From contig JAOUFA010000001.1 in the NCBI GenBank assembly GCA_029858545.1, positions 1-39,439 on the forward strand: a stretch of 39,439 nucleotides of DNA, given 5' to 3'. Made by a program: the position numbers and the translations under genes. Origin of the DNA: Betaproteobacteria bacterium. GTDB taxonomy: Bacteria; Pseudomonadota; Gammaproteobacteria; Burkholderiales; SG8-39. The notes under the pieces were generated by a model that had not been told where the DNA came from, did not search any database, and worked only from the letters and a program-made list of their open reading frames with translations. Below, in pieces: positions 4,216 through 39,439 of this stretch (positions are counted from its first letter, which is position 1; every line of letters begins with the position of its first letter).

Positions 4216-4284
4216 TTGGGTCGGGTCATGCAGGATCCTCGTTCAGGGTGCGCGTTTTCGCTGAACCGCCCGGCATCGAAACGC

Positions 4285-4785: not shown

Positions 4786-4949
4786 AACTTACCACTAGAC
4801 TCTGCCGCAATCGCTCTCCTCGGGCGCGCGTCGCGGAGCGAGATGGACATAATGCGCATTGCAGACCGCTCAGGGCGCGTTCCGGCGCGGGATTGTCGTG
4901 CGCAGGCAAGCTGTTCAGACTTTCGAGGCGCATTGATTTCCCTATCCGT
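4786..4949 (+). repeat. 164-bp structured interspersed element, full copy A
   Basis: AACTTACCACTAGACTCTGC...GATTTCCCTATCCGT. It differs from copy B at 8 positions, all within element nt 21-51, and is ~85% identical to copy C with no indels. Confidence 0.95.
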
Positions 4950-5581: not shown

Positions 5582-8500
5582 ATGGGACCGGCGTGGAAGA
5601 CAGGCAATTCTGTTCTTCTTCGCCATTGGCGCAGGATAGGCACAGGTCTGAGCAGGGCGCGCACGGCCGGAAGTAGCGCAGCGGAAAAATCTTTCGACGA
5701 AGAGCCGCCGCTGCGGGCGGAATTGTTCAGCACCGAGCAGATGGAGCAGCACGGCGCGCGTCTCGCCTCGGTCCACCGTTTAAAGCCTGGCCGTGTGCCG
5801 GACCAACTGCTGTCGCGGCTGGCCGCGAACGAGACTGCGCTGGTCGAAACCTGCGATCGGCTGACCGTAGCGATCGCGGAAACGCACCGCATCACGCCCG
5901 CCGGGGAATGGCTGCTCGACAACTTCTATCTCGTCGAGGAACAGATCCGCACGGCCCGGCGCCACCTCCCCAAGGGCTACAGCCGGGAACTGCCTGCCCT
6001 GGCCGAGGGCGCTTCGGCCGGACTGCCGCGCGTGTATGACCTTGCCCTTGAGACCATCGCCCATGGCGACGGACGGGTGGACCCGGACAGCCTAGGCCGT
6101 TTCATCACCGCGTACCAGACAATAACCCCCCTCAGGCTGGGCGAGTTGTGGGCCATTCCCATCATGCTGCGTCTGGCGCTGATCGAAAATCTGCGCCGCG
6201 TCGCAGTGCGCATCGCCGGCGGCAGGATGCATCTTGATCTGGCCGTCGAGTGGGCGAGCAAGCTGACAAGAATCGCCCGCGACGATCCGAAAAACATGAT
6301 CCTGGTGATCGCGGACATGGCGCGATCGAAACCGCCCATGACGACGCCATTCGTGTCGGAACTGGCGCGGCGCCTGCAGGGACACGGTCCCGCCCTGGCC
6401 TTGCCGTTGACCTGGATCGAGCAGCAACTGGCCGCATCGGGCTTGAGCATCGAGCAGCTGGTACGGTCGGGAAATCAGCAGCAGGCGGCCGATCAGGTTT
6501 CCATCAGCAACAGCATCGGCAGCCTGCGCTTGCTCGGAACCATGGACTGGCGCGAGTTCGTCGAGACCATGAGCGTGGTCGAACAGACCCTGCGCACAGA
6601 ACCGGGCGCGGCCTATGCCGCGATGAACTTCGCCAGCCGCGACCGCTACCGCCATGTCATCGAGCAAGTGGCGAAGGCCAGCGGACTTTCCGAAGCGGCG
6701 GTATCCAGCCACGCCATCGCGCTGGCGCGGGCGGGTGCGGCCCGGGGCGGACAGACCGACAGAATGGCGCATGTGGGCTATTACCTGATCGACCGGGGGC
6801 TGACCGAGCTGGAACGCGCGGCCCAGGCACGCCTTCCATTGGCGGCGATGCTGCGGCGCTGGGCAAGCCGGAACCCGTTGTTGGTCTATCTGGGCACCAT
6901 CACGCTGCTCACGCTGCTGCTGACCAGCGGCCTGTTGGCGGAGGCGCAGACGCAGGCCAGCGATGTGCTCACTCGGGGTGAGATCCATTGGGTGCTCGCA
7001 TTGACGGTCATACTCGCACTGCTGGCCTCCAGCCAACTCGCGGTCGCGCTGGTGAACTGGCTGGCCACATTGCTGACGTCGCCGCATTCGCTGCCGTGCA
7101 TGGACTACTCGGCGGGCATCCCGCCGGAATCACGCGCCCTGGTGGTGGTCCCGACCATGCTCACCAGCCCGCAGAACATCGACAGCCTGGTCGAGGCGCT
7201 GGAAGTGAGATTTCTCGCCAATCGCGACGACAACCTGCACTTCGGGCTGTTGACCGATTTTCGCGACGCTGCCGAGGAAACGCTGGCCGGGGATGCGCCG
7301 CTGCTGGATCTTGCGCGGCAGCGGATCGACGCCATGAATGCGCAGTACGCGCGCGGCGGCAAAGACATCTTCTTCCTGTTTCATCGCCCGCGCCGCTGGA
7401 ATCCCCACGACAAGATATGGATGGGTTACGAGCGCAAGCGCGGCAAGCTGGCGGACCTGAATGCGTTGCTGCGCGAAGGAAACGGTGAAGGCTTCTCCCT
7501 GGTGGTCGGCGCGACCGCGGCACTCGCCGGCGTGAAATACGTGATCACCCTGGACACGGATAGTCAATTGCCGCGCGATGCCGCGCGCCAATTCGTGGGC
7601 GCCATGGCGCACCCGCTGAACCGTCCGGTCTACGACGCGGCCCTGGGGCGGGTCAGCGCGGGCTACGGCATCTTGCAACCGCGGGTGAGCGTGAGCCTGT
7701 CCGGCGCAAGCCAGTCGCGCTATGCGCGCCTGCACGGCGGCGAGCCCGGCATTGACCCGTATACCCGCGCCGTCTCCGACGTCTACCAGGATGCGTTCCA
7801 GGAAGGTTCGTTCATCGGCAAGGGGATTTACGACCTCGATGCGTTCGAACAGTCGCTCAAGGGACGCTTTCCCGAAAACCGGATCCTCAGCCACGATCTT
7901 CTGGAAGGCTGCTACGCACGCGCCGGGTTGTTGAGCGACGTGCAGCTATACGAGGAGTACCCGGCCCGCTACCTCGCCGACGTCAACCGCCGCTACCGCT
8001 GGATCCGAGGCGACTGGCAACTTGCGGCCTGGGTGCTGCCGTGGGTGCCCGGTTCCGACGGGCGGCTGCGCAAGAACCCCCTCTCCGCGCTGTCGCGCTG
8101 GAAGCTGTTCGACAACCTGCGCCGCAGCCTGGTGCCAGCGGCGTTGACGCTGCTGTTGCTGCTGGGCTGGACGCTGTTTTCTTCATCCCTGCTCTGGACC
8201 CTGGCGGTGCTCGGCATCCTTTTGATCCCGCCGGTGCTGGCCACTTTGCCGGAGGTGTTGCGCAACCCCGGCGACATGCGTCCGGATCAGCATCTCGCTG
8301 CAGCAGTCCACGCCGCCGGCCAGCGCATCGTCCAGACCGGCTTTGCCCTGGCGACGCTGCCCCATGAGGCGTTCTACAGCCTGGATGCGATCTTGCGTAC
8401 CCTCGGGCGTTTGCTGGTCACGCACAAACGGCTGCTCGAATGGAATCCCTCCGGCGACCAGGAACGACTGAGCCGCAGGGACCTGGCCACCTCGTTCCGC

Positions 8501-11500
8501 GCCATGGGGTTCGCACCCACCCTCGCCGCCGGCACGGCCATTTATCTGGCTGCGTCCGATCCGCCCGCGCTGCCCGTGGCGGGCTCCATCCTGATTCTGT
8601 GGCTGGTGTCCCCCGCGATCGCCTGGTGGATCAGCCTGCCCCTCACCCGCCGCGCGGCTCGGTTGACGACCGAGCAGACCCGTTTTCTCGGCAGGATCGC
8701 GCGCAAGACCTGGGCCTTCTTCGACACCTACGTCGGTCCGGAAGATCATTGGCTGCCCCCGGACAATTGCCAGGAATACCACGACGTTCTCACGGTGGCG
8801 CATCGCACATCGCCCACAAACATGGGGCTGGCCCTGCTGGCGAATCTGACTGCCCACGACTTCGGTTATATCCCGGCCGGCGTGCTGGTCGAGCGCACGT
8901 CCCATACCCTGAAGACCATGGCGGAACTGGAACGGCATCGCGGCCATTTCTTCAACTGGTACGACACGCAATCGCTGCGACCGCTGCACCCCGTCTACAT
9001 CTCAACCGTGGACAGCGGCAACCTGGCGGGCCATCTCCTGACCCTGCGTCCGGGCCTGATCGAACTCATTGACCGCCCGATCCTGGAGACCCGCTGGTTG
9101 GACGGCCTGGGCGATACCGTGGGGATCCTGGAGGAGGCAGCGGGCAAGGCCGCACCGGCAACGCTGATCCAATTCCGGCAGGACCTCGAAACGGCATGCG
9201 CATCCCTGCCGACCACGCTCCCGGCGGCACAGATGCTGCTCGACCGGCTGGCGCGATCCGCCGAGGCGATCGGCGACGAACTGGGGAATGAGCCCGAAAG
9301 CCAGGCGGGCTGGTGGGCACAGGCGTTGGTCCGGCAATGCAATGCACACCGCGACGAGCTGACGTTTCTTGCGCCCTGGGCCAATCTGGCGCAAGTGCCC
9401 GAGGGCCTCGGCGATCTTCCCGACGTCGATGCGATCCCGACGCTGCGCGCCCTGGCGGAACTCGAAGTCGCCACGTCGAGCCGCCTCGCGAACCTGTCGG
9501 AGGCGGACGCGACGCCCGCGCGGGCGACGTGGCTGACCGAACTGCGCCGCCGCGTCGCGCAGGGCAGCGAGCACGCCCGGGCCCGCATCGCGGCCATCCA
9601 GAGTCTTGCGCTGCAGGTCGGCGAATTTGCGGACATGGAATATGGCTTCCTGTACGACAAAGCATCACGCCTGCTGAGCATAGGCTACAACCTGGACGCG
9701 CGGCGGCTGGACGCGAGTTACTACGATCTGCTGGCTTCGGAAGTGCGCTTGTGCGTGTTCGTCGCCATTGCCCAGGGAAAAATTCCCCAGGAGAGCTGGT
9801 TCGCGCTCGGCCGCTTGCTCACGCGCGCCGGCGGCGAACCGATCCTGCTGTCGTGGAGCGGCTCGATGTTCGAGTATCTGATGCCGCAACTTGTTATGCC
9901 GAGCTACGAGCACACCCTGCTCGACCAGACCGCCCGGGCGGCGGTGGCGCGGCAGATCGAGTACGGGCAGCAGCACGGCCTGCCATGGGGCATGTCGGAA
10001 TCCGGTTACGACACGGTGGACGTGCATCTCAATTACCAATATCGCGCCTTCGGCGTGCCCGGCCTGGGGCTGAAACGTGGGCTCGCCGAAGAGATGGTCG
10101 TCGCGCCCTACGCCTCGGCGCTGGCGTTGATGGTGGCGCCGGAGGCGGCCTGCCTGAACCTGCAACGGCTCGCCGCCGCTGGCGCGGAAGGGCAGTTCGG
10201 TTTTCATGAGGCCATCGACTACACCCCGGCACGACAACGACGCGGCGAATCCCATGCCCTGGTGCGCTCCTACATGGCCCATCACCAGGGCATGAGCCTG
10301 CTCGCCCTGGCCTGTCTGCTGCTGGGTCGTCCGATGCAGAAGCGCTTTGCCTCCGATCCGCTGTTCCAGGCCACCCTGCTGTTGCTGCAGGAGCGGATCC
10401 CCAAGGCCTCGGCGTTCTATGCCCACGCCGCCGAACTCACCGGCATCCAGGCAGGCGCGGGCAGCCCGCAGATGCCGATCCGCTTGCTCGACAGCCCCGA
10501 CACGCCGGTCCCGGAAGTGCAGTTGCTCTCGAACGGCCGCTATCACGTCATGGTGACCAACGCGGGCGGCGGCTACAGCCGCTGGAAGGACTTGGCTCTG
10601 ACGCGCTGGCGCGAGGACGGCACCCGTGATCATTGGGGCACGTTCTGCTACCTGCGCGACGTGGAAAGTGGCGCGTTCTGGTCCACCGCGCACCAGCCCA
10701 CCTTGCGCCGGGGGGCAAGCTACGAAGCGATCTTTTCGGAAGGGCGCGCGGAATTCCGCCGCCGCGATCGGGGTGACGATTTCGATTTCGACACCCACAC
10801 CGATATCGTCGTATCCCCGGAAGACGACATCGAACTGCGCCGGGTGCGCGTCACCAACCGTTCCACCGCGCGTCGGACGATCGAAGTCACCAGCTACGCG
10901 GAGGTGGTGCTGGCGGACCCCGCCGCCGACGCGCTGCATCCGGCGTTCAGCAATCTGTTCGTGCAGACCGAGATCGTTGCGGCGCGCCAAGCCATTCTCT
11001 GCACCCGCCGCCCACGCTCGCGCGACGAACAGACGCCCTGGATGTTTCATTTGATGGCCGTGCATGACGGGGACGTCGACGGGTTTTCCTATGAAACCGA
11101 CCGAGCACGCTTCATCGGCCGGGGACGCAGCCTCGCCGCGCCCCAGGCGATGGACACCGCCGCGGCGCTGTCCGGCAGCCAGGGCTCTGTACTGGACCCG
11201 GTAGCGGCTATCCGCTCTCGGATCACTCTCGCACCGGGACAGTCGGCCAACGTGGACCAGGTCTATGGCATCGGCGACAGCCGCGAAGCCGCTTTGAATC
11301 TCGTGGAGAAATATCAGGACCGGCGCCTTGCCGACCGTGTCTTCGAATTGGCCTGGACCCATGCCCAGGTGGTGCTGCGACAGATCAACGCGGGGGAAGT
11401 GGACGCGCAACTCTACGGACGCCTGGCCAATTCGATCCTCCACGCCAATACCTCGTTGCGCGCCGACAGCAGCGTGCTCACGAAAAATCGGCGCGGGCAA

Positions 11501-14386
11501 TCCGGCCTGTGGGGCTATGCCATTTCCGGTGACCTGCCCATCGTTTTACTGCGTATCGGTGACCTGACCAATATCGAGCTGGTGCGCCAGCTCATCCAGG
11601 CCCACGCCTATTGGCGCCTGAAGGGACTGGTGGTGGACATGGTGATCTGGAACGAGGACCGCGCCAGTTACCGGCAGGTGCTGCAGGACCAGATTCTGGG
11701 CCTGGTGGCGGTCGGTCTGGAAACCCAGGTGATGGACCGGCCGGGCGGCATCTTCATCCGCTCGGCAGAGCAGATTTCCGAGGAAGACCGCACGCTGTTC
11801 CAGACCGTCGCGCGCGTCATCCTTAGCGACAGCGCGGGAACACTGGCGGAACAGGTCAATCGCCTTGCCGCGGTGCAGGTGCGCGTGCCGCGACTCGTGG
11901 CGAGCCGGCCCAAGTTTCCCGAACTGCCCGCCGCCTTCGAACTGCCGCACCGCGATCTGATCCTGTCCAACGGGATCGGCGGGTTCACCCCGGACGGGCG
12001 CGAGTACGTCATCACCACCACGCCCGAACAGCCCACCCCGGCGCCGTGGGTGAATGTGCTGGCCAATCCCGACTTCGGCTGCGTCATCTCGGAGAGCGGC
12101 CAGGCCTATACCTGGGGCGAGAACGCCCACGAGTTCCGCCTCACGCCTTGGCACAACGACCCGGTATCCGACGCCGGCGGCGAGGCCTTTTACCTGCGCG
12201 ACGAGGAAAGCGGCCAATTCTGGTCACCCACGCCGCTGCCCAGGCGCGGCGCGACTCCCTACGTCAGCCGGCACGGCTTCGGCTACAGCGTGTTCGAACA
12301 TTGTGAGAACGGCATCCGATCCGAGCTGTGGGTCTATGTGGCCCAGGATGCGCCGATCAAGTTCTCCGTGCTCAAGGTGCGCAACACCTCGGGCCAGCCG
12401 CGCCGGCTTTCCGCCACGGGCTACGTCGAATGGGTGCTGGGCGACCTGCGGCCGAGATCCGTGATGCACGTGACCACCTCGGTTGCCATTGAGGTCGATC
12501 CCTACGTCGGAGCACTCTACGCGCGCAACCCCTACAACACCGAGTTTCCCGACCGGGTCGCGTTCTTCGATGTGGACGACGCGAACCGGAGCGTCACCTG
12601 CGACCGCGCCGAATTCATCGGCCGCAACGGCAGCCTGGAAAATCCGGCGGCGATGGCGCGCACCCACCTGTCCGGCAAGCTGGGCGGCGGTCTGGATCCC
12701 TGCGCCGCGATTCAGGTGGGCTTTGATCTTGCCGACGGGCAGGAACGCGAGATTACATTCAGGCTCGGCCTGGGAGGCATGCCGGGCGGCGGCGAAGTCG
12801 GTCACCTGGTGCATCGCTTCCGCGGCGCCGACGCCGCGCGGCGGGCATTGGAAGGCGTCTGGCAATATTGGAACCACACTCTCGGTGCGGTCCAGGTGAC
12901 GACGCCCGACACGTCACTCAATGTGCTGGCCAACGGCTGGCTGTTGTACCAGACCATGGCGTGCCGCCTGTGGGCTCGCAGCGGCTATTACCAGTCGGGC
13001 GGCGCGTTCGGCTTCCGCGACCAGTTGCAGGACGCGATGGCGCTGGTACACGCCGAGCCGGGGCTGCTGCGCGCCCAACTGCTCCTGTGCGCAGGCCGTC
13101 AGTTCCAGGAAGGCGATGTCCAGCATTGGTGGCATCCGCCCTCCGGCCGCGGTGTGCGCACCCATTGTTCCGACGACTATCTGTGGCTGGCCCTGGCCAC
13201 CTGCCGCTATGTGCAGTGCAGCGGCGACACCGGCGTGCTGGATGAATCCGTCGCGTTCCTGGAAGGCCGTCCCCTCAACCCGGACGACGATTCCTACTAT
13301 GACCTGCCCGGCTACTCCGAGGGCGTAGAGAGCCTCTACCAGCACTGCGTGCGGGCTATCCGGCACGGACTGCAATTCGGCGAACACGGCCTGCCGCTGA
13401 TCGGGTCGGGCGACTGGAACGACGGCATGAACCGGGTGGGTATTCAGGGCAAGGGAGAAAGCGTGTGGCTGGGCTTCTTCCTATACGACGTGTTGCGCCA
13501 GTTCGGCGATCTGGCGCGCCGCCAAAATGACGCCGCCTTCGCCGAATTCTGCGCAGTGGAAGGCAAGCGCCTGCGCGCGAACATCGAGCAGCACGGCTGG
13601 GATGGCGCCTGGTATCGCCGCGCGTGGTTCGACGACGGCACCCCCCTCGGCTCCGCGGGCAACAGCGAATGTCAAATCGATTCGATCTCGCAAAGCTGGG
13701 CGGTGCTCTCCGAGGCGGGCGACAGCGAACGCGCGCATATGGCCATGCAGGCCGTCGACGCCCGGCTGGTGCGCCGCGACCACGCCCTCATCCAGTTGCT
13801 CGATCCCCCCTTCGACAAGTCCAACCTGGACCCGGGCTACATCAAGGGCTATGTGCCGGGTGTACGCGAGAACGGCGGTCAGTACACCCACGGCGCCATC
13901 TGGGCGGCTATGGCCTTCGCCGCCCTAGGCGACAGCCGCCGTGCCTGGGAACTCACCACCATGATCAACCCGGCCAACCATGCAAAATCACCCGAGGCCA
14001 TCGCGGCTTACAAGGTGGAACCCTATGTCATGGCGGCCGACGTCTACGCCGTGACGCCCCACATCGGCCGCGGCGGCTGGACCTGGTACACCGGCTCGGC
14101 TGGCTGGATGTACCGGCTCATCGTCGAATCGCTGCTGGGTTTGCGGCTGGAGGCGGACCGGCTGCACGTTACTCCTTGCCTGCCGACACATTGGACCGAA
14201 GTGACAATCCACTATCGCTACCGGGAAACGGTCTATCACATCGCCGTTTCGCAAATCCGGGCGGGCGGCGATGGGAAAACTGGCGTAATGCGTATCAGCG
14301 TCGATGGTGTCGAATTGCATGACCAGGCGATTCCGCTTTGCGACGACCAACGGGAACACTCGGTCGCAGTGACGGTGCACGTGTAG
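5582..14386 (+). CDS. ndvB: cyclic beta-1,2-glucan synthase-like protein (NdvB/ChvB/Cgs type: GT84 glycosyltransferase, cyclization/glucoamylase-like domain, GH94 phosphorylase)
   Basis: 2934 aa. TM clusters flank a GT domain (ALVVVPTMLTSPQNID...LDTDSQLPRDAA...GYGILQPRV). The middle domain contains RTSPTNMGLALLANLTAHDFGY...FFNWYDT...STVDSGNL and SWSGSMFEYLMP...GMSESGY. There are two GH94 N-domains (LLSNGRYHVMVTNAGGGYS; LSNGIGGFTPDGREYVI) and a GH94 catalytic core (GFRDQLQD...VQHWWHP...GSGDWNDGMN). The first ~40 aa may be an over-extension. Confidence 0.85.
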   Translation: MGPAWKTGNSVLLRHWRRIGTGLSRARTAGSSAAEKSFDEEPPLRAELFSTEQMEQHGARLASVHRLKPGRVPDQLLSRLAANETALVETCDRLTVAIAETHRITPAGEWLLDNFYLVEEQIRTARRHLPKGYSRELPALAEGASAGLPRVYDLALETIAHGDGRVDPDSLGRFITAYQTITPLRLGELWAIPIMLRLALIENLRRVAVRIAGGRMHLDLAVEWASKLTRIARDDPKNMILVIADMARSKPPMTTPFVSELARRLQGHGPALALPLTWIEQQLAASGLSIEQLVRSGNQQQAADQVSISNSIGSLRLLGTMDWREFVETMSVVEQTLRTEPGAAYAAMNFASRDRYRHVIEQVAKASGLSEAAVSSHAIALARAGAARGGQTDRMAHVGYYLIDRGLTELERAAQARLPLAAMLRRWASRNPLLVYLGTITLLTLLLTSGLLAEAQTQASDVLTRGEIHWVLALTVILALLASSQLAVALVNWLATLLTSPHSLPCMDYSAGIPPESRALVVVPTMLTSPQNIDSLVEALEVRFLANRDDNLHFGLLTDFRDAAEETLAGDAPLLDLARQRIDAMNAQYARGGKDIFFLFHRPRRWNPHDKIWMGYERKRGKLADLNALLREGNGEGFSLVVGATAALAGVKYVITLDTDSQLPRDAARQFVGAMAHPLNRPVYDAALGRVSAGYGILQPRVSVSLSGASQSRYARLHGGEPGIDPYTRAVSDVYQDAFQEGSFIGKGIYDLDAFEQSLKGRFPENRILSHDLLEGCYARAGLLSDVQLYEEYPARYLADVNRRYRWIRGDWQLAAWVLPWVPGSDGRLRKNPLSALSRWKLFDNLRRSLVPAALTLLLLLGWTLFSSSLLWTLAVLGILLIPPVLATLPEVLRNPGDMRPDQHLAAAVHAAGQRIVQTGFALATLPHEAFYSLDAILRTLGRLLVTHKRLLEWNPSGDQERLSRRDLATSFRAMGFAPTLAAGTAIYLAASDPPALPVAGSILILWLVSPAIAWWISLPLTRRAARLTTEQTRFLGRIARKTWAFFDTYVGPEDHWLPPDNCQEYHDVLTVAHRTSPTNMGLALLANLTAHDFGYIPAGVLVERTSHTLKTMAELERHRGHFFNWYDTQSLRPLHPVYISTVDSGNLAGHLLTLRPGLIELIDRPILETRWLDGLGDTVGILEEAAGKAAPATLIQFRQDLETACASLPTTLPAAQMLLDRLARSAEAIGDELGNEPESQAGWWAQALVRQCNAHRDELTFLAPWANLAQVPEGLGDLPDVDAIPTLRALAELEVATSSRLANLSEADATPARATWLTELRRRVAQGSEHARARIAAIQSLALQVGEFADMEYGFLYDKASRLLSIGYNLDARRLDASYYDLLASEVRLCVFVAIAQGKIPQESWFALGRLLTRAGGEPILLSWSGSMFEYLMPQLVMPSYEHTLLDQTARAAVARQIEYGQQHGLPWGMSESGYDTVDVHLNYQYRAFGVPGLGLKRGLAEEMVVAPYASALALMVAPEAACLNLQRLAAAGAEGQFGFHEAIDYTPARQRRGESHALVRSYMAHHQGMSLLALACLLLGRPMQKRFASDPLFQATLLLLQERIPKASAFYAHAAELTGIQAGAGSPQMPIRLLDSPDTPVPEVQLLSNGRYHVMVTNAGGGYSRWKDLALTRWREDGTRDHWGTFCYLRDVESGAFWSTAHQPTLRRGASYEAIFSEGRAEFRRRDRGDDFDFDTHTDIVVSPEDDIELRRVRVTNRSTARRTIEVTSYAEVVLADPAADALHPAFSNLFVQTEIVAARQAILCTRRPRSRDEQTPWMFHLMAVHDGDVDGFSYETDRARFIGRGRSLAAPQAMDTAAALSGSQGSVLDPVAAIRSRITLAPGQSANVDQVYGIGDSREAALNLVEKYQDRRLADRVFELAWTHAQVVLRQINAGEVDAQLYGRLANSILHANTSLRADSSVLTKNRRGQSGLWGYAISGDLPIVLLRIGDLTNIELVRQLIQAHAYWRLKGLVVDMVIWNEDRASYRQVLQDQILGLVAVGLETQVMDRPGGIFIRSAEQISEEDRTLFQTVARVILSDSAGTLAEQVNRLAAVQVRVPRLVASRPKFPELPAAFELPHRDLILSNGIGGFTPDGREYVITTTPEQPTPAPWVNVLANPDFGCVISESGQAYTWGENAHEFRLTPWHNDPVSDAGGEAFYLRDEESGQFWSPTPLPRRGATPYVSRHGFGYSVFEHCENGIRSELWVYVAQDAPIKFSVLKVRNTSGQPRRLSATGYVEWVLGDLRPRSVMHVTTSVAIEVDPYVGALYARNPYNTEFPDRVAFFDVDDANRSVTCDRAEFIGRNGSLENPAAMARTHLSGKLGGGLDPCAAIQVGFDLADGQEREITFRLGLGGMPGGGEVGHLVHRFRGADAARRALEGVWQYWNHTLGAVQVTTPDTSLNVLANGWLLYQTMACRLWARSGYYQSGGAFGFRDQLQDAMALVHAEPGLLRAQLLLCAGRQFQEGDVQHWWHPPSGRGVRTHCSDDYLWLALATCRYVQCSGDTGVLDESVAFLEGRPLNPDDDSYYDLPGYSEGVESLYQHCVRAIRHGLQFGEHGLPLIGSGDWNDGMNRVGIQGKGESVWLGFFLYDVLRQFGDLARRQNDAAFAEFCAVEGKRLRANIEQHGWDGAWYRRAWFDDGTPLGSAGNSECQIDSISQSWAVLSEAGDSERAHMAMQAVDARLVRRDHALIQLLDPPFDKSNLDPGYIKGYVPGVRENGGQYTHGAIWAAMAFAALGDSRRAWELTTMINPANHAKSPEAIAAYKVEPYVMAADVYAVTPHIGRGGWTWYTGSAGWMYRLIVESLLGLRLEADRLHVTPCLPTHWTEVTIHYRYRETVYHIAVSQIRAGGDGKTGVMRISVDGVELHDQAIPLCDDQREHSVAVTVHV

Positions 14387-14396
14387 AACCCGTGTC

Positions 14397-14560
14397 AACT
14401 TACCACTAGACTCTGCTCCAATCGCCTTCTTCGGGCGGGTGTCGCGAAGCGAGATGGACATAATGCGCATTGCAGACCGCTCAGGGCGCGTTCCGGCGCG
14501 GGATTGTCGTGCGCAGGCAAGCTGTTCAGACTTTCGAGGCGCATTGATTTCCCTATCCGT
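14397..14560 (+). repeat. 164-bp structured interspersed element, full copy B
   Basis: Starts 10 nt after the ndvB-like stop codon (TAG 14384-14386). It is identical to copy A over element nt 52-164. Confidence 0.95.
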
Positions 14561-14984
14561 GTCCGATACGGTTCAGACCTTGCGTTACCTGCCGCCGACG
14601 ACCATACGCGTCGTTGCCGATCAACAGGGCCGTGACCATGCAAGTCTGTTGCCACATGAATTGATCGGCCAGGGACTGGAAGCTGTGCCGCCCGAGACAG
14701 CGGCGCACATTGTGCGCAGCGAGGAAGCTACCCTCCGCACATTGGTTGCGGTTGCCGAAGAGCTGGCCGCGACGCAGGCCAGTACGATACTGAAAGGGGC
14801 ACACACCCAGACACGCGACAACCTGTCGACGGAAATTAACCGGCTCAAGGCCTTGCGCCGGGTAAACCCGAACATCCGGGAAGACGAAATCGAACACCTC
14901 GAATCACATTGGCAAATACTGAGCCGGGTACTCGATACCGCCAAACCCCGGCCGGATGCAATCCGGGTGATTGTGGACACCTGA
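14561..14984 (+). pseudogene. rapA: RNA polymerase-associated SNF2 ATPase RapA/HepA, C-terminal ~140 aa fragment
   Basis: ...LRYLPPTTIRVVADQQGRD...STEINRLKALRRVNPNIREDEIEHLESHWQILSRVLDTAKPRPDAIRVIVDT* matches the extreme C-terminus of RapA (E. coli ...RLEALRAVNPNIRDDEL...RLDALRLIV). Homology begins immediately at the right edge of repeat B, and there is no 5' part of the gene. Confidence 0.8.
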
Positions 14985-15025
14985 TCCGTATCGCGTACGC
15001 TCACTGGTGAACGAAAGGCCGGACA

Positions 15026-15049
15026 CCCGGGAATCTCCAGCGTCCCGGG
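15026..15049. terminator. 7-bp GC hairpin between convergent rapA fragment and methyltransferase gene (weak terminator candidate)
   Basis: CCCGGGA-N10-TCCCGGG. There is no clear U-tract on either strand. Confidence 0.2.
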
Positions 15050-15061
15050 CGCCGCATGAGA

Positions 15062-15895
15062 TTAGGCGGGTTTTCGCGCGATCATTTCCACCGGAGCCAG
15101 CAATCCGGCGCTGACGTTTTCGACCAGGTTCTTTATCTTGGCAGGTGTGGTTGCCTGCATCAGCGTGTGCAAACCCAGCGGCGGCGGGCCACCATTTGCC
15201 TCTGTTTTCGCTTTCATCTGCTTGAAAAATTCAAGCCCGAATTCCCTCCGGTTCGTCTCCGCCGTAATCACAAAGCCTGCTGCGCCAAGAGCTTGCCTGT
15301 ACTGGTCCGGTGTCGCCAGGCTGCTGGTCATTCTATCCGTCGCCCAGGTTGCGGGATAATTCGCCTCACCGTCGCCGATCTGCATAATATCGTAAGCCCC
15401 GAACACCGCTCCCGGTCGAAGCACACGGTATACCTCGGCAAACAATTTCTTTTTATCCGCAATATTCATTCCAACATGCAACATAATCGCTCCGTCAAAT
15501 GACTCATCCTCGAACGGCATTGACAGTGCGCTCCCCTGTTCCAGTGTGACCTGCCTTTCCAGTCCGACCCAGGAACAAAGCGCATTACCGGTATCGATAT
15601 ATTCCTGTGTCAAATCGATACCGGTTACCCGTGCGTTGGTCTTTTTTGCCGTATACCGCGCTGCACCACCAAGCCCGCATCCGACATCCAGCACGTGATC
15701 CTTGTCTGTAAATTTCATTTGCTGCAGCAGGTGATCGGTTGCCAGGCGTCCGCCAATATGAAATTCGTCGACCGGTCCGAGGTCCTCCACGGTTATCGAG
15801 TCCACGGTTTTTCCCAGCTTGGGAATCGCCACCTGGATCGCGCCCAACAAATCCCCGTGGGTGTAGTGTTTCGATATCGCGTTTTCAATAGACAT
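15062..15895 (-). CDS. class I SAM-dependent methyltransferase
   Basis: 277 aa. SAM-binding motif I VLDVGCGLGGAARYTA, followed by VTGIDLT and LRPGAVFGAYD. GAGGAG Shine-Dalgarno upstream. Confidence 0.85.
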   Translation of the reverse strand: MSIENAISKHYTHGDLLGAIQVAIPKLGKTVDSITVEDLGPVDEFHIGGRLATDHLLQQMKFTDKDHVLDVGCGLGGAARYTAKKTNARVTGIDLTQEYIDTGNALCSWVGLERQVTLEQGSALSMPFEDESFDGAIMLHVGMNIADKKKLFAEVYRVLRPGAVFGAYDIMQIGDGEANYPATWATDRMTSSLATPDQYRQALGAAGFVITAETNRREFGLEFFKQMKAKTEANGGPPPLGLHTLMQATTPAKIKNLVENVSAGLLAPVEMIARKPA

Positions 15896-15992
15896 AATCA
15901 GATCTCCTCTCGTTATAGGCGGTTTGTGAAATTCGCCGATGCGTCACCGGCTGCAATAGAATTTCTTTGATCCGACAATTTACTCATCAGCA

Positions 15993-16823
15993 TCAGCTCG
16001 ACCTGATCATTTCCGGCATCGAATCCGGGTATCGCATTACCGCTTCATCAAGCAGGAACAGCTTGTCGGGAGGAACCTGTGGCCAGGCATGATGGGAGGT
16101 GTGTCGGAAGAATCCGTCGCTGACCCGCTTGCCATTTGTCATCCTCAACAAGATCTTTACAAACCCCGGTATCTTTTTGTCCAGCCCAAAGCGGTAGGTC
16201 TGCGTGTGTGAAAACCAGGAGAAACTCAGCCACGCAATCGCGCTCATTAATCGCACGGCCAGCACTACCCCCAGGTACTTCTCCCAGCCGAAACTCAGGA
16301 CGAACAGGACCAGTAGCGGCAGGTAGATGGCCAGGCGGATCCAGCGACTGGTCGTGATATTCCTGTTGCGGATATCGATCACGAGCTGCGCTTCCTCGAA
16401 GAACGTGCAATAAAACAGCGAACGCCAGAATCCACCGGACTCGTAGATGGAATGCGGATCCTTTAGCATATCTCCGCCCGGTACCTTGCCCGGCATGTGT
16501 TCCAGGTGATGCGTAAAGTGTTTCTTCCGGATGGAATCGATGGGCTCGGCCCACGGAACCGCAACAACTGCAAAATGCTCAGCCATGAGCTCAATCGCCC
16601 GCGGCCACCGTCGCAGCTGGTCGGTATGCATGCGATCGTGGGCGCCCATAAAGAACCGCATGTAGAGGAGATGAAATAGCAGGTAGAAAACGGGCCAGCT
16701 CAGGTAGTCCAGCGCGTAGGCAAATATGACTACGTACGTCATCGCGGTCATAAGGGTCACTTCTACGTCCAGAGCTCTCTTGGACTCTGCCGGTATATTG
16801 AATTCCTCGTCACCGATTTTCAT
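15993..16823 (-). CDS. membrane fatty-acid desaturase-family protein (three His boxes)
   Basis: 276 aa, hydrophobic. His boxes HDRMH, HFTHHLEH and HTSHHAWPQ, spaced as in the di-iron membrane desaturase/hydroxylase family. Confidence 0.75.
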   Translation of the reverse strand: MKIGDEEFNIPAESKRALDVEVTLMTAMTYVVIFAYALDYLSWPVFYLLFHLLYMRFFMGAHDRMHTDQLRRWPRAIELMAEHFAVVAVPWAEPIDSIRKKHFTHHLEHMPGKVPGGDMLKDPHSIYESGGFWRSLFYCTFFEEAQLVIDIRNRNITTSRWIRLAIYLPLLVLFVLSFGWEKYLGVVLAVRLMSAIAWLSFSWFSHTQTYRFGLDKKIPGFVKILLRMTNGKRVSDGFFRHTSHHAWPQVPPDKLFLLDEAVMRYPDSMPEMIRSS

Positions 16824-16886
16824 ATCAACTTTCCCTGCGATTCGCCATCTCTAGTCGTATTAATCCCTATGCATCGAGTGCATCCG

Positions 16887-17081
16887 TCAGACCGGACTGA
16901 TCAGGCTCTGGCCGCCAATGCCCCAGTTGTTCTCGCTTACCTCCTCGATTAGCACCCAGGTGATGCCCCGCATGGCCTCGCCCTCAATGGACACCATGGC
17001 ATCGGTCACCTTCTGGATCATTTCCCGCTTCTGTTCATCGGTGAAAACATTTTTGATCACGCTGATGGTCACCAGTGGCAT
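16887..17081 (-). CDS. 4-oxalocrotonate tautomerase-family protein
   Basis: 64 aa beginning MPLVTISV, which gives the catalytic Pro1 after Met removal. Tautomerase-like length and beta-alpha-beta pattern ([21 protein letters not shown]). Confidence 0.85.
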
Positions 17082-17242
17082 GCACTCCCTCCTGTTGCGA
17101 TTTACGGGCTTTTCCAGTTATTTCATGCATCCTAAATCCATCAATCTCCGGATACCTGAAGTCGGCCAGGAGGTTTTATGGAGATTTTGTGGAGATAGTT
17201 TGCTAATTTGATATCTGGGGTATTTCCAGGGGGAGACTTTCG

Positions 17243-18778
17243 GTGCGGCTGATTTTCGGGGAATACGTGCTCGATACAGAGCTATTCGAACTGCGTCACA
17301 ACGGTGAGCGGTCCCCGCTTGAGCCGCAGGTATTCAACCTGCTGCTGTACCTGGCCCGCAACAGGGATCGTATCGTCAGCCGCCAGGAGCTGCTCGACAA
17401 ACTATGGGCTGGAAAGATAGTTACCGAATCGACCTTGAGCAGCCGCATCAAGGCCGCGCGGCAGGCAGTCGGTGACAGCGGGCACAACCAGAACTGCATC
17501 GCCACGTTCAATCGCCGTGGATACCGTTTTGTAGCCGAAATCGTCGAAGAACGGGAGCAGACAGGTAAGGAGTCAATTGACGTCTTTCCGAAGATGCCTG
17601 CTCCGCATCGGGATCAGCCCTCGCTGGCCGTTCTGCCCTTTGCACATAACCCGGGTGACGAAAAGATAGCGTGGATTGCCGAGATGCTGGGCGAAGACAT
17701 CAGTATCCAGCTGGCCCGAATCCCGGGGTTCCTGGTGATTTCGCGTAATTCCACCGCGTACTATCGCGGCCGCGAATTCACCATAGACCAGATCGGTCGC
17801 GAACTGGAAACCGATTACGTTATCGAGGGTTCGGTCTGGAATACCGGCGACAAGCTGCGTGTATCAGTACAGTTGCTGGAAACCTCCAGCGGCCGGTTTC
17901 TGTGGGCCAACCGCACGGAGTTACCGGCCAACAAACTCGGGGATTACCAGGATGACGTGGTGCGCGAAATCGTTGGTCAAATCGAGCCGGAACTGAACCG
18001 CGCCGAACTGCTTAGTTTGCGTCAACACAGACCGGTTGATCTCGGCGCGTGGTCACTCTATCGCCAGGGCCATGCGCTGCTCGGGATCAAAGGCTGGAGC
18101 GAAGAGACCTTTGCCGAAGCAGCGGACCTGTTACGCCAGGCAATTGCCCGCGATTCAGAACTGGCGTTTGCACATGCTTACCTGGCGCTGCTACTAGCCA
18201 TCGGGCATTTGATCGGCCTGGTCACGGACGATGCCAGTCGCGAGGAAGCGGTCGTCGCAGCGGAAACCGCTTTGGCACTCGATGGCCAGGACCCGGATAT
18301 TCTTGGCTACGTAGGCTGTGCGTTTGCCGACATGGGCGAGTTCCAGCGCGGCATCGGTATGATGCGACGCGCGGTTGAACTGGACCCGAGCAATGCGCAG
18401 GCGCATGCGGCACTTGGTTCCGCGCTACTGCACATAGGCGAGTTAGAGGGCATCGAAGAAATGCGCTACGGCATTCGCATCAGTCCCCGTGACAACCGTC
18501 TCGCTGCCTGGGGCGCCATGCTGGCACGCGGTCTATTAAGTCTCGGCAAGGTTGACGAGTCGATTGAGGCAGCGGAACACGCGTGCCGCTGTGACGACAA
18601 GATCTTCCTGCCACGCGTGGTACTGGCGGTGGCACAAAACACCGCGGGCAACCTGCAGGCCGCCCGCGCCGCGCTCGACGATGCACGCCGCATCCGGCCG
18701 CAACTGTCGTTGAATGACATTGCACGTTTTGCCAGCCCGGAGGAAATCTCAAGCCTTTCGCAAGCCGGCCTGGTCTAG
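17243..18778 (+). CDS. transcriptional regulator with an OmpR/CadC-type winged-helix DNA-binding domain and C-terminal TPR repeats
   Basis: 511 aa with a GTG start and GGGGGAGA Shine-Dalgarno. The N-terminus FELRHNGERSPLEPQVFNLLLYLARNRDRIVSRQELLDKLWAGKIVTESTLSSRIKAARQAVGD is a trans_reg_C-type domain. The C-terminal half has TPR-like repeats (AHAYLALLLA, DPSNAQAHAALGSALL). Divergent from the tautomerase operon. Confidence 0.8.
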   Translation: MRLIFGEYVLDTELFELRHNGERSPLEPQVFNLLLYLARNRDRIVSRQELLDKLWAGKIVTESTLSSRIKAARQAVGDSGHNQNCIATFNRRGYRFVAEIVEEREQTGKESIDVFPKMPAPHRDQPSLAVLPFAHNPGDEKIAWIAEMLGEDISIQLARIPGFLVISRNSTAYYRGREFTIDQIGRELETDYVIEGSVWNTGDKLRVSVQLLETSSGRFLWANRTELPANKLGDYQDDVVREIVGQIEPELNRAELLSLRQHRPVDLGAWSLYRQGHALLGIKGWSEETFAEAADLLRQAIARDSELAFAHAYLALLLAIGHLIGLVTDDASREEAVVAAETALALDGQDPDILGYVGCAFADMGEFQRGIGMMRRAVELDPSNAQAHAALGSALLHIGELEGIEEMRYGIRISPRDNRLAAWGAMLARGLLSLGKVDESIEAAEHACRCDDKIFLPRVVLAVAQNTAGNLQAARAALDDARRIRPQLSLNDIARFASPEEISSLSQAGLV

Positions 18779-18797
18779 TTTTTTACAGCACTGACAT

Positions 18798-19081
18798 TCA
18801 ATTTCTGTCCTGAAAAATCATCTCAGCGCCCTTCTCCGCAATCATCGTGGTCGGCGCATTGGTGTTACCAGAGATGATGGTCGGCATCACCGATGCATCG
18901 ATCGCCCGCAATTCCTGGATACCGTGCACGCGCAATTTCGCATCGACCACCGCCAGCGCATCAACACCCATTTTTCAGGTGCCCACCGGGTGAAAAATCG
19001 TAGCGCCGAGATCACCTGCGGCAATCAACAACTGTTCATTCGATTGAGCCACGAGCCCGGGTCGGAACTCCTCCGGACGAT
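18798..19081 (-). pseudogene. GMC-family (choline dehydrogenase-like) oxidoreductase, C-terminal ~93 codons with an in-frame TGA
   Basis: YRPEEFRPGLV...[67 protein letters not shown]. The TGA at 18975-18977 replaces the Cys of the conserved GTCKMG motif. The 5' ~450 codons are cut off at the left edge of repeat C. Confidence 0.8.
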
Positions 19082-19245
19082 AACTTACCACTAGACTCTG
19101 CTCCAATCGCCCTCTTCGGACGCGTGTCGCGGAGCGAGATTGACTTAATGTGCAATGTAGACCGTTCAGGGCGCGCTCCAGCACGGGATTGTCGTGCGCA
19201 GGCAAGCAGTTCAAACTTCGGGGTCGGATTGATTGGCCTATCTCT
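19082..19245 (+). repeat. 164-bp structured interspersed element, full copy C (second subfamily)
   Basis: Collinear with A and B without indels. It differs from B at 24 of 164 positions and shares subfamily-specific bases with partial copy D. Confidence 0.95.
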
Positions 19246-20979: not shown

Positions 20980-21488
20980 GAGCTTTTGCACCGCCTCCTG
21001 CGTGGACACCAGCACCTCCAATTCGATCCGAGGTGCTCAAGCTCCTCGTCGCCGAGCATGCCATCGGCGAGCGGCTCGCGGCAGGCCTGCTCGCCTGGCG
21101 CCACAGCGGCTTCTCGGTGCATAACGCCGTACGCGTTCGAGCAGGGGATCTGGAGGGCCGCAAGAAGCTCGCGCACTACACGCTGCGCGCGCCGCTTTCC
21201 CTGGAGAAGATGACCTATGACGCAGGGAAAGGCATGGTCATCTACCGCTCGCACATGCACAAGAGTCTAAAGCGCAATTTCCAAGTGATGTCCGGCGCGC
21301 AATGGCTCGAACTGCTCTGCCGCCATATTCCGGACCGGTTCGAAGATCTGGTGCGCTACGTTGGCTGGTACTCGACAAGGGTTCGGGGCGATCGGGCTGC
21401 GCTGGCGCCGCGCGCTGTGGTCGCGCAAGGCGCCGGCGAACGCGTATCTGGTAGAGTGTCGGGAACGAGCGCCGGCCCGGGAGCCTAG
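20980..21488 (+). mobile_element. IS91-family (HUH Y2, rolling-circle) transposase, C-terminal fragment only
   Basis: ...EVLKLLVAEHAIGERLAAGLLAWRHSGFSVHNAVRVRAGDLEGRKKLAHYTLRAPLSLEKMTYD...YRSHMHKSLKRNFQVMSGAQWLELLCRHIPDRFEDLVRYVGWYSTRVRG matches the conserved C-terminal third of IS91/ISCR-type transposases. There is no N-terminal Zn-finger or HUH region and no recognisable IS ends. Confidence 0.75.
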
Positions 21489-31112: not shown

Positions 31113-31625
31113 TCACGCTGGAGAAGTGTCGAGTGCCATCGGCATTCCGAGGCAGACAGATTTCACCCGGTCCCGCATCTGCGGCGAGTCGGCCGGATGG
31201 CGATAGGCCCGAAACACTTCATTCGAGGAATCGCCGGCGCGAACGGGAGCCATAAACGGATCGACATATTCCCACACGATCTCGCCGGCAGGCGTGATTT
31301 CAAAAAGCCGCCCCCATTGCCCTTCGCAGATGAGTGTATTGCCGCCGGGCAGGCGCTGCGCGCCGCTGATGTGCGGGCTGAAAAATGTATGGGCGAGCCT
31401 GGCACGATTCTCCCATACGATCTTGTGCGTGCGCGGATCGAGTTCGACAACACGGGAGAATGGATTATTCGGCGTGTTGATGCCATTGGCGAACAGCGTG
31501 ATGTTCCCGTTCGGGAGGGGTGCGCAGTCGTGCTGCATTCCGAAGCTGTCGTCGCGGTGCGCCCACTCTAGTTTCCGGGTGCTCTTGTCGATCAGCCCGA
31601 TCGTATTGAGACGGCGAAAGCTGAA
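31113..31625 (-). pseudogene. arylsulfotransferase (ASST)-like beta-propeller protein, C-terminal ~170 aa fragment
   Basis: The open frame reads FSFRRLNTIGLIDKSTRKLEWAHRDDSFGMQHDCAPLPNGNITLFANG...SRVVELDPRTHKIVWE...GEIVWEY..., fitting the HHD..LPNGN..FDNG / ..IVWEY pattern of ASST-family proteins. An upstream stop lies at 31626-31628 and there is no N-terminal half. Confidence 0.5.
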
Positions 31626-31772: not shown

Positions 31773-32368
31773 TTCGCAGCAAGTCGGGTGTTCGGCGCCG
31801 ACTGCTCGCAGCTGGCGAGCTACGAGGTCCCGATTGGTGGACCTTGACCGCCGGCTCGCCCGTGCCGCGGCGCGGCCCCTTCCAGCGGGGCGTCGCCGCC
31901 GCTATGGTGCCGCCCGCGCGCAGGCCAGCCATGCTCGACGCCGGTAGAAGATGAGCTCTCCGCAGCCGGCGCCGACGGGCTCGCAGGCGCCCGCCGTCCT
32001 GCGCCTGAGCGCCATGCGCGTGGGAGCTTGATGGCTTTCGGCGGCGGAGGCTACAGCCCGGAGACGCTTTCGGTGGCGCGGTGCTCGAAGCGCTGCTGGA
32101 GGCCTGATTCGGGGCGCTGATTCAGGCGGATTGATTGCGGCGCGTTGAGGCATGGCAGCGCGTTGATCGATGACGCCGCGGCCATATTCGCCGGATTCTC
32201 GAGCATCGGTGCCGCTGCGTGCGGCGCGAGGTAAGACCGCATCGCGCGCGCTCTAGAGGATCAGGAGTTCTATCGCAGCGTGAGCGCGGGCGGCATCCTG
32301 CGTGTAGAACCGGACGAGGCGCGCGGCCGCGACGGAGCGGACCGCGGAATTCCCCGGCCGCGCGGGCG

Positions 32369-36620: not shown

Positions 36621-36971
36621 ATGAGACATTACAACCGTTTTGTATTCACGCTCGGCGCCACCGCCGCGCTGTTGTTTTGCACCGCCACCGCCACCGCCAC
36701 CGCGTCTAGCCCATCGTATGAACAAGGCCTGGAAGCGGCCCGCGAATACCGCTATTCGCTGGCACTCACGCATTTCACCGTCGCGGCGGAGCACGGGGAT
36801 CAGGATGCGCAACGCAGCCTGGGATTGATGCTCCTGCATGGGGAACGGCTCTATGGGCGCGAGGTGCGCCGTGACGAAGAACAGGCGAAGCGTTGGCTGC
36901 GGGCGGCTGCGGCCCAGGGCTGCGCAATCTCGTCCCACATTCTCAAGAAACTCGCAAAACACGCCAATTGA
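36621..36971 (+). CDS. small secreted Sel1-like repeat (SLR/TPR-family) protein
   Basis: 116 aa. Signal peptide MRHYNRFVFTLGATAALLFCTATATATA. SLR-like text AAEHGDQDAQRSLGLMLLHGE...EEQAKRWLRAAAAQGC. Divergent from the response regulator. Confidence 0.65.
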   Translation: MRHYNRFVFTLGATAALLFCTATATATASSPSYEQGLEAAREYRYSLALTHFTVAAEHGDQDAQRSLGLMLLHGERLYGREVRRDEEQAKRWLRAAAAQGCAISSHILKKLAKHAN

Positions 36972-37130
36972 CCCGGTTCTTGCTGCGCCCCGGCAGGATG
37001 GAATCTACTGACCCCAGCCGGGTGAAGACTGATTCCACCCTCAGGTGCGCGAGGGGAATCCTTCATCCCCCCGGCCCTAGTCGGCACAAACAGGAGATCG
37101 GCAAATCCTTCCGGGCGTGAAGTCTGAAGG

Positions 37131-37180
37131 GCGCAGGCAAGCTGTTCATGCTTCGGTGCTGGAATGATTGGCCTATCGCT
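37131..37180 (+). repeat. interspersed element, right-end partial copy E (element nt ~115-164)
   Basis: GCGCAGGCAAGCTGTTCATGCTTCGGTGCTGGAATGATTGGCCTATCGCT is collinear without indels with nt 115-164 of copies A-D. It ends 1 nt before the cupredoxin gene stop codon on the opposite strand. Confidence 0.75.
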
Positions 37181-37717
37181 TTATCGCACCTCGATCACGC
37201 CGCGCATCCCGCCTTCGTAGTGCCCGGGGACCAGGCAGGCAAAATCGACCGTGCCCGCCTGGGTGAACTGCCAGACGATCCCGCCGCGCCGGCCGGGCGC
37301 GACGCGCGCCATGTTCGGCGCGGCGTGTTTCATGTGGGGCTGCGCACGCATCATCTCGGCGTGCGCCTTCAGGTCCGCGCTCGAACCGATCGCCATGTCG
37401 TGCTCGCTGCCGCCCGCATTGCGCAGGAAGAAGCGCAGGGTCTCGCCGGCCTTGACCTGCACGCGAGCGGGCGTGAAGCGCAGGTCGTCGCTCATCACGA
37501 TCTCGACCGTGCGCGACACTTTCGCCGGATCGCCGGGCCGGCCGGCGGTGCCCATGTCGTGACGCATGCCGGGCATGTCGTGCTGCATGCCGGGCATGTC
37601 GTGCCGCATGCCCGGCATATCGTGCGCGGCGCCGTGCGAAGCACTGTGTTTCTCCTCGGCGGCCAGCGCGCCCGCCGGCGCGACGACGAGCGCGAGGATG
37701 CAAATCGATTTTTTCAT
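37181..37717 (-). CDS. periplasmic cupredoxin-domain copper-resistance protein (CopI-like) with a His/Met-rich repeat
   Basis: 178 aa. Signal peptide MKKSICILALVVAPAGALA. (HDMPGM[RQ]) x3 plus a partial fourth unit HDMG, then a cupredoxin fold with type-1 Cu ligand pattern (EHDM ... FACLVPGHYEGGM). AAGGAA Shine-Dalgarno. Immediately downstream of copB. Confidence 0.8.
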   Translation of the reverse strand: MKKSICILALVVAPAGALAAEEKHSASHGAAHDMPGMRHDMPGMQHDMPGMRHDMGTAGRPGDPAKVSRTVEIVMSDDLRFTPARVQVKAGETLRFFLRNAGGSEHDMAIGSSADLKAHAEMMRAQPHMKHAAPNMARVAPGRRGGIVWQFTQAGTVDFACLVPGHYEGGMRGVIEVR

Positions 37718-38610: not shown

Positions 38611-39439
38611 TCAGCTCACCACGACGACACGGAACATGCCGGCGTCCATGTGGTGCAGCAGGTGGCAGTGCCAGGCCCAGCGGCCGAGCGCGTCCGCGGT
38701 GACCAGAAACGACAGCCGTTGCGCCGGCTGCACCGCGAGCGTGTGACGGCGCGCGAGAAACCGTCCCTCCGGCGTCTCGAGTTCGCTCCACATGCCGTGC
38801 AAATGCATCGGATGAGTCATCATCGTGTCGTTGTGCAGGATGATGCGCGCGCGCTCGCCGTAGCGAAGGTGGACGGGCGAGGACTTTCCGAACTCCAGGC
38901 CGTCGAACGACCAGGTGTAGCGCTCCATGTTGCCGGTCAGATGAAGCTCGATCTCCCGCTCTGCGCCCCGCTCGTCGAGCGGGCCGCCGAGCGTGCGCAG
39001 ATCGGCATAGGTGAGAACGCGCCGGCCGTTGCCGCGCAGGCCGATGCCCGGGTCGTCGAGGTTGACGCGCGGCGTGTCGACGCGCATGTCCACGCTCGGA
39101 CCGTATTCGCTGCGCGCATGGCGCACCCGACGCGAGGCGCCCGAGGGCGCCTCCGCCGCACCGTGCGCCGCGTGCGCGCCGTGGTCCATCGCGGCGCCGC
39201 CCGCGGCGGGGCCGTGCATGGCGTGCTCCCCGCGGTCCATCGCGGACGCGGCGGCCGCCGCCGGCGCGGCGCCGTGCATCGCGTGCGCCCCGTGATCCGG
39301 TTGCCCGGCGGCAGCAGCCGCCGCCGGCGTGCCGTGCATGGCGTGCGCGCCCTGATCCATCCCCGCGTGCGACATCCCGCCCATGTCGCCCATCATGTCG
39401 GCCATCGTCAGCCACTCGGGCTGGTCGGGTGCGGGGACC
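38611..39439 (-). CDS. copA: multicopper oxidase CopA/PcoA, C-terminal part (5' end outside the window)
   Basis: His/Met-rich loop, then cupredoxin domain 3 with Cu-ligand motifs HPMHLHGMW and WAWHCHLLHHMDAGMF. The frame stays open to the window edge. Confidence 0.9.
   Translation of the reverse strand, partial: VPAPDQPEWLTMADMMGDMGGMSHAGMDQGAHAMHGTPAAAAAAGQPDHGAHAMHGAAPAAAAASAMDRGEHAMHGPAAGGAAMDHGAHAAHGAAEAPSGASRRVRHARSEYGPSVDMRVDTPRVNLDDPGIGLRGNGRRVLTYADLRTLGGPLDERGAEREIELHLTGNMERYTWSFDGLEFGKSSPVHLRYGERARIILHNDTMMTHPMHLHGMWSELETPEGRFLARRHTLAVQPAQRLSFLVTADALGRWAWHCHLLHHMDAGMFRVVVVS

Follow-up and report, generated by a model that had tools for sequence, protein, structure and literature searches.

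This locus raised the question of what kind of DNA is represented by a short repeat that occurs five times on one strand, keeps the same right terminus in every copy and lacks part of its left side in two of them. The initial annotation had taken the terminus to be the oriIS end of an IS91/ISCR-type element and the partial copies to be products of one-ended transposition. Both ideas were examined by comparison with related elements that carry a transposase gene (tnpA) in metagenome contigs.

Repeats, transposase remnants and gene fragments in the window

The window (the whole stretch of DNA analysed, 39.4 kb, 65% GC) carried genes of proteobacterial appearance, including those for a TRAP transporter, a cyclic beta-1,2-glucan synthase of 2934 codons, an ABC transporter cluster, a two-component system and copper resistance. 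A repeat search found one repeat family with five members, A to E, all on the + strand and all located between reading frames. The spans given by this search were 4784–4949 for A, 14395–14560 for B and 19080–19245 for C, each of full length; D and E consisted of the right-hand part only.

The copies were delimited with a profile of IS tails, and D and E were left out when this profile was built. Copy A was located at 4786–4946 (profile match 4782–4946) and ran from AACTTACCACTAG to GATTTCCCTATC. Copy B was located at 14397–14557 (profile match 14395–14557) and copy C, which ended in GATTGGCCTATC, at 19082–19242 (profile match 19079–19242). These three copies were full solo units of ~161 nt with a common left boundary, each covering profile positions 83–246. 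Copy D (31678–31768/31769) kept the right ~91 nt, covering profile positions 155–245, and ended in GATTTGCCTATA; copy E (37125–37177; E = 8.5e-6 against the tail profile) kept the right ~53 nt, covering positions 194–246, and ended in GATTGGCCTATC. The left parts lacking in D and E had been put at 68 and 114 nt; the truncation itself was confirmed, and the profile gave about 70 and about 110 nt.

Identity to copy A was 95% for B and 83% for C, and A and B shared, beyond the unit, TC on the left and CGT on the right. Multiple alignment of all copies showed that their similarity ended 0–3 nt past CCTATC, in agreement with the earlier remark that it stops just after CCTAT. Exact matches to GATTKKCCTAT were found in the window at 19231, 31758 and 37166, with a chance expectation of 0.04. 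Allowing up to 3 mismatches, GGATTGATTKKCCTAT matched all five copies and one further site that is likely a chance match (expected 0.53), while the left end AACTTACCACTAGACTC had exactly three matches in the window (4786, 14397 and 19082; expected 0). The description of five collinear copies with the fixed right terminus GATTKKCCTAT was thus borne out by motif searches, alignment and profile. An 18-mer of the unit, GCGCAGGCAAGCWGTTCA, was invariant. Copies D and E both began with GCGCA and had no TT-containing site at the left end.

A transposase remnant had been annotated at 20980–21488 as a C-terminal fragment, adjacent to no copy, and as the only such remnant in the window. Homology was restricted to 21022–21402 (+ strand), where the Y2_Tnp match was an internal fragment of an IS91-type tnpA with both ends missing, corresponding to about residues 225–350 of a 455-codon frame; its DNA was 96% identical to the IS copy in locus L107 of the metagenome set described below. 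This remnant was indeed unlinked to any unit, and it was not the only one. A second, degenerate tnpA remnant, overlooked before, was located at 32136–32251 (+ strand), 364 nt to the right of copy D, within the region encoding ...PMxVIALIDD... (the C-terminal zinc-ribbon region), and no tail followed it. No unit adjoined either remnant, and the window contained neither an intact IS nor a tnpA-linked unit. Because the window has no intact transposase, recent movement, if any, would have depended on a genomic copy located outside it. The seven IS-derived pieces of the window, i.e., the five units and both tnpA remnants, were all on the + strand.

Several gene fragments were found beside the units. 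The segment 3808–4654 held pieces of TctC (profile positions 21–104 of 274) and DctM (306–383 of 413), the C-terminal half of an arylsulfotransferase was encoded at 31113–31625, and a short Sel1-repeat reading frame lay at 36621–36971. The left side of copy D adjoined the arylsulfotransferase gene, which lacked its 5' part. The missing half was not evident to the right of D when the six reading frames were inspected by eye, so a simple insertion into this gene does not account for D. Given the gene fragments beside the units, the region is heavily rearranged. Degenerate direct repeats of 51–60 nt (~66–74% identical) were also observed at 39136–39371, inside a multicopper oxidase (CopA-like) gene on the − strand; they probably correspond to the Met/His-rich region of the CopA-like protein.

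Tails downstream of tnpA in related elements

Searching the protein collection with the 124-residue core of the 21022–21402 remnant yielded hundreds of relatives with 60–86% identity. Many database relatives were frames of ~210–217 residues that started at an internal methionine (MLAWRHSGFSVHN...) and kept the 3' half and the tail. This suggests that the 5' half is disrupted or missing in many metagenome copies of this IS, although their number may be overestimated owing to contig ends and the C-terminal query. The full-length TnpA of L092 (444 residues from the first ATG) contained the Pfam domains Zn_Tnp_IS91 and Y2_Tnp and scored 148.5 bits against NF033538 "IS91 family transposase" (cut-off 125). 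The same protein scored 121 bits against NF052416 ISCR_clade_Ia (cut-off 925), which places it outside that ISCR clade. Compared with plasmid-borne IS91/ISCR-type transposases, the window fragment shared 26–42% identity over its length.

Metagenome contigs were scanned with an alignment of transposase C-terminal halves, and 80 loci (numbered with the prefix L) were taken from at least 546 confirmed matches. These loci were selected solely for encoding relatives of the Y2 transposase remnant of the window. In about 45 of the 80, the stop codon after ...YHPVPDIA could be located, and the next 215–260 nt ended in GGATTGATTNNCCTATC. The motif was on the same strand as tnpA, and the sequences past it were, beyond 0–3 nt, unrelated among loci. 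About 215 nt past the tnpA stop of L084, for example, the DNA reads GCGGGATTGATTTGGCTATC, and the tail of L085 aligned with the window unit from AATTTACCACTAGACTC onwards. For the subgroup with tails beginning GTTGCTGAACGA, the last ~160 nt aligned column by column with the window unit. The alignment was collinear from AAYTTACC to CCTATC across 12 complete tails, two contig-truncated tails and copies A–C, and nhmmer placed D and E on the same tail profile. The closest relative was L107, whose tail was 86–90% identical to A–C. Both the IS tails and all solo units ended in GGATTGATTNNCCTATC.

In full elements of this subgroup, the order was the tnpA stop, ~86 nt ending in an internal motif that resembles an origin (GGAATTGATTGCCCAGC), the ~160-nt unit, the terminus GGATTGATTNNCCTATC and a [C/G/T]TTN target. 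On the upstream side, alignments showed conservation back to ~170–230 nt before the ATG; they gave no base-exact position for terIS, the left end of the full element, because the copies start at different points. The published layout of IS91 is terIS, tnpA, oriIS and target tetranucleotide (PMC13181058), so the fixed right end in the window is the oriIS side. With the same terminus downstream of the tnpA of relatives, the proposed IS91/ISCR-type oriIS end found direct support.

A related terminus was sought on plasmids as well. An annotated IS91-family element on two resistance plasmids, which we take to be ISCR-type, was identical between the two up to ...GACAGTTCCTATCAGT and then diverged. 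The TTCCTATC core that the initial annotation had given for oriIS ends is real: it was present at the end of the plasmid element and resembles the NNCCTATC core of the tails studied here. Tandem repeats of the terminal motif or of a TATCC(C)TT junction were observed in L102 (1766–1811, where the last 31 nt are repeated), L153 (1324–1380, reading CCTATCCCTATCCCTTTATCCCTTTGATTTACCTATCCCCTATCCC), L106 (1287–1315) and the tail of L127; they may be traces of slippage or of multiple nicking events at the origin end.

All distinct non-window junctions with the terminal motif in the fetched loci were collected (n = 42). The third base after TATC was T in 41 of them, and the lone exception looks like a chance match to the motif. 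The fourth base was T or C in 37 of 42, and the second was C, T or G. These bases read as a target tetranucleotide of the form xTTx, which in most cases lies one base past TATC. The IS91 target tetranucleotide is of the GTTC/CTTG type with an invariant T at position 2 (PMC13181058), and the T at the third base fits this family rule; a target match earlier described as loosely compatible has thereby become firmer. Within the window, the right flanks of four of the five copies fitted the rule (A, CGTC; B, CGTG; C, TCTT; E, GCTT). Copy D, with TATA|GTCT, fits only if the target directly abuts the end.

Target duplication is not expected upon insertion of IS91-family elements. None was found at A or C, and B was flanked on both sides by the 6-nt direct repeat CGTGTC, its context reading …AACCCGTGTC|AACTT … CCTATC|CGTGTCCG… (window 14386–14566). 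The repeat at B may be due to chance, or partly to the TC and CGT bases common to A and B.

The best stem next to the terminal motif had a mean of 4.31 bp vs. 3.69 ± 0.16 bp in shuffled sequences, and stems of at least 5 bp were present in 19 of 42 sequences (8.3 expected). Many relatives had a palindrome of 5–9 bp directly before the terminal motif, with arms that differed between lineages (CCGGC/GCCGG, GCCGC/GCGGC, GGCCC/GGGCC and CCCGGCGC/GCGCCGGG). The window copies reached a best stem of only 2 bp in this test and had no perfect subterminal palindrome; they may be decayed. Most units contained a compound hairpin in their left part (GCTCCG...CCCC-loop-GGGG...CGGAGC), and the repeat search listed no pair of inverted repeats inside a unit.

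Solo units and their possible origin

The tail profile was searched against the window and all fetched loci. Solo units starting at the A–C boundary (profile positions 85–89) were found in L103 (6152), L108 (7161), L125 (7800), L126 (7186), L137 (1320) and, on the − strand, L133 (1275). A unit in L105 (2602), whose alignment starts at profile position 73, is probably another, and four further units started at the shared boundary but ran into the contig end. The left flanks of the solo units were all different. Other solo pieces had different starts yet reached the terminus: two in L085, one in L101, one in L126 (9157) and one in L163 (925). The last two both started at profile position 144, and this common start in two independent solos argues for left ends that would be directed by sequence rather than random.

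The right end was kept in all 17 informative solo pieces, i.e., those whose right side did not run into the end of a contig. Copies linked to tnpA that lacked the right end were found in L097, L125, L132 and L085, and the tail of L132 stopped at profile position 86. The rule that truncated copies always keep the right end thus applies to solo pieces and fails for some tnpA-linked copies.

Full elements had the unit preceded by TGGAATTGATTGCCCAGC, a direct repeat of the terminal motif, and then AATTT. A second IS subgroup kept a similar internal motif, e.g., GGATAGATTGCCATGTGGATTTTTACC in L098, L109 and L111. Solo units started 0–2 nt past the internal motif; their first bases were TTTACC in most of the metagenome copies, and the window units read AACTTACC. 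The left boundary of the unit is therefore a target-like CTTA/TTTA (AA|CTTA or AA|TTTA) beside an origin-like motif. About 11 of the 13 solo pieces in metagenome loci L093–L137 were situated 0.3–3.5 kb downstream of a full IS and on the same strand; their placement and strand bias suggest local, orientation-biased hopping, as expected of a single-stranded DNA transposon.

The unit is homologous to the tails, it is located downstream of tnpA in the relatives, its right flank carries the target signature, and it recurs as a solo piece with a precise left boundary. We consider it highly probable that the repeat corresponds to the last ~160 nt of the oriIS-side right end of an IS91-family element, and that A–C are mini-elements formed by one-ended transposition. 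The distribution of the unit would point to its mobility. According to the mechanism proposed, the transposase would initiate at oriIS and stop early at the target-like site just past the internal origin-like motif, and the resulting short piece would be inserted next to a new xTTx target. Since movement cannot do without the origin end, the right end would be kept; the opposite end would vary with the point of termination.

One-ended transposition, as claimed at the outset, is the best reading of A–C as right-end mini-elements; D and E may instead be relics of deletion. These two copies could have arisen in the same way but with atypical stops, or they could be ordinary insertions from which the left part was subsequently lost. 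Later deletion is at least as likely for them as rolling-circle mis-termination, and it is favoured for D because D sits against a truncated gene.

Extending deletion to the whole set, so that all five copies would be relics of full-length IS insertions whose left parts and tnpA were later deleted or recombined away and only the complete IS would ever have moved, is distinctly improbable. The broken genes beside the copies (TctC and DctM at 3808–4654; arylsulfotransferase at 31113–31625), the two tnpA scraps and the left ends of D and E without target-like sequence agree with such a history, and most IS801 fragments in finished genomes were attributed to rearrangements (Bardaji et al., PMC3189936). 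However, random deletion would not repeat a left boundary within 2–3 nt in A, B, C and at least six unrelated metagenome contexts, and it would not leave the right end intact in every informative solo piece. A two-origin release is possible, if rather unlikely; it is a variant of one-ended transposition that leaves the IS91 assignment unchanged. The direct repeats GGAATTGATTGCCCAGC and GGATTGATTNNCCTATC would both serve as nick sites, one for initiation by the transposase and the other for termination, giving a single-stranded circle of one unit that would then integrate. Rolling-circle plasmids with two origins initiate at one and terminate at the other. The internal motif is conserved as a direct repeat of the terminal motif in two IS subgroups, the solos start within 2 nt of it, the AATTT that follows fits T at +3 and +4, and the L132 tail stops at profile position 86, as expected after excision of a unit. 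Against this, the window lineage has AACTT after the motif, one base out of register, and in other IS subgroups (L084, L088 and L095) the terminus is the same but no internal motif is obvious. Early ter-like termination and two direct-repeat origins both fit the left boundary.

A host intergenic element unrelated to transposition (REP-like, small RNA or regulatory site) would account for copies that are all intergenic and on one strand, yet it is hardly credible for a unit with end-to-end homology to an IS91-family tail. No Rfam match was found, folding of the single strand was no better than that of shuffles (z = +1.1 to +2.3), and promoter or terminator consensus was absent in or beside the units. 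A structured RNA or REP-like element was rejected: no Rfam family was matched in the window, and neither strand showed a fold signal when treated as RNA or as DNA. Indels displace the stems from unit to unit, and RNAalifold, run on 28 units, accordingly yielded no consensus structure. A classical MITE was also rejected: the ends of the unit are not inverted repeats of each other, and the unit is a one-ended derivative of its parent IS.

Outward promoters are present at the oriIS of ISCR1; a consensus scan detected none in or next to A and C. When representative genomes were scanned with the 18-mer GCGCAGGCAAGCWGTTCA, 83 loci were obtained and none extended past the seed, i.e., they were chance matches. 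The plasmid collection contained no match to the unit, and no close plasmid relative was found for the 14–22 kb stretch of the window. Searches for proteins identical to the products of two window genes gave no match.

Genes between the units and comparison with known systems

The interval between B and C (14561–19079, ~4.5 kb) had a GC content of 56.1% vs. 65–67% in neighbouring intervals, and it resembles foreign DNA whose borders coincide exactly with two origin-end units. This interval encodes a methyltransferase, a desaturase-like protein and an OmpR-type/TPR regulator. Copies A and B are direct repeats bracketing the glucan synthase gene (5582–14386), and B starts 10 nt past its stop. 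The nearest relatives of this gene were in L170 (86% DNA identity) and L171 (80%), where the downstream DNA was unrelated; neither of them had a unit or a clean empty site after the gene. The GC-poor interval and the glucan synthase gene between A and B are consistent with gene capture. Solo ends might act as portable rolling-circle origins, with the transposase supplied in trans, bring in the DNA on their left side and so assemble a same-orientation array of cargo plus origin end; this we regard as unlikely. If true, it would represent ISCR-style capture of ordinary chromosomal genes in an environmental bacterium, and the internal origin-like motif would be a built-in means of shedding mini-origins.

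The five repeats and the two transposase scraps can be annotated as IS91-family right-end fragments, and the region as a rearranged, IS-scarred mosaic. The terminal motif GGATTGATTNNCCTATC, the third-base-T target rule and the architecture of the tail describe a widespread environmental subgroup of the IS91 family (at least 546 loci), which was matched to no named IS in a comparison made without ISfinder. That ~160-nt solos recur with an internal copy of the terminal motif at their boundary suggests that short origin-end pieces are a general product of the family. Such pieces bear on how rolling-circle elements, including ISCR elements near resistance genes, move neighbouring genes.

The element shares with ISCR a (T)TCCTATC core at the oriIS end, the frequent lack of a recognisable terIS and the association with mosaic, captured DNA. 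Unlike ISCR, its transposase misses the cut-off of the ISCR_clade_Ia model, and it is found in an environmental, chromosome-like region without resistance genes.

In common with IS91, IS1294 and IS801, the element encodes a Y2 HUH transposase that begins with a zinc-binding domain, is arranged as terIS, tnpA and oriIS, and has a conserved terminus after tnpA, next to a target tetranucleotide whose position 2 is T. It may also share with them the lack of terminal inverted repeats and, in most relatives, subterminal palindromes. The element differs from the three by its terminal sequence GGATTGATTNNCCTATC and by a distinctive C-terminal extension of the transposase ending in TYHPVPDIA. Its target is also looser (CTTN, GTTN or TTTN, usually one base after TATC) than that of IS91, which is strictly GTTC or CTTG.

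To our knowledge, the mobility of short origin-end pieces has so far been shown for IS801 alone. Right-end fragments of IS801 of 229, 360 and 679 nt were described in Pseudomonas syringae pv. phaseolicola (Bardaji et al. 2011, PMC3189936). They were bounded by a tetranucleotide resembling the left end, were mobilised by one-ended transposition and made up about a quarter of the captured IS801 insertions (PMC3189936). Like these fragments, the solo pieces described here retain the origin side on the right, and their left end is discrete and falls at a short target-like sequence; truncated fragments derived from rearrangements also occur in both elements. The unit differs from the IS801 fragments in its smaller size (~160 nt) and in a left boundary that falls at a second, internal copy of the motif seen at the terminus. 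It belongs to a different element, whose transposase is only distantly related to plasmid IS91/ISCR-type transposases. Transposition was shown for the IS801 fragments, whereas the mobility of the window unit is deduced from its distribution. Right-end debris of rolling-circle IS is thus already known, and the window provides another example of it rather than a new system.
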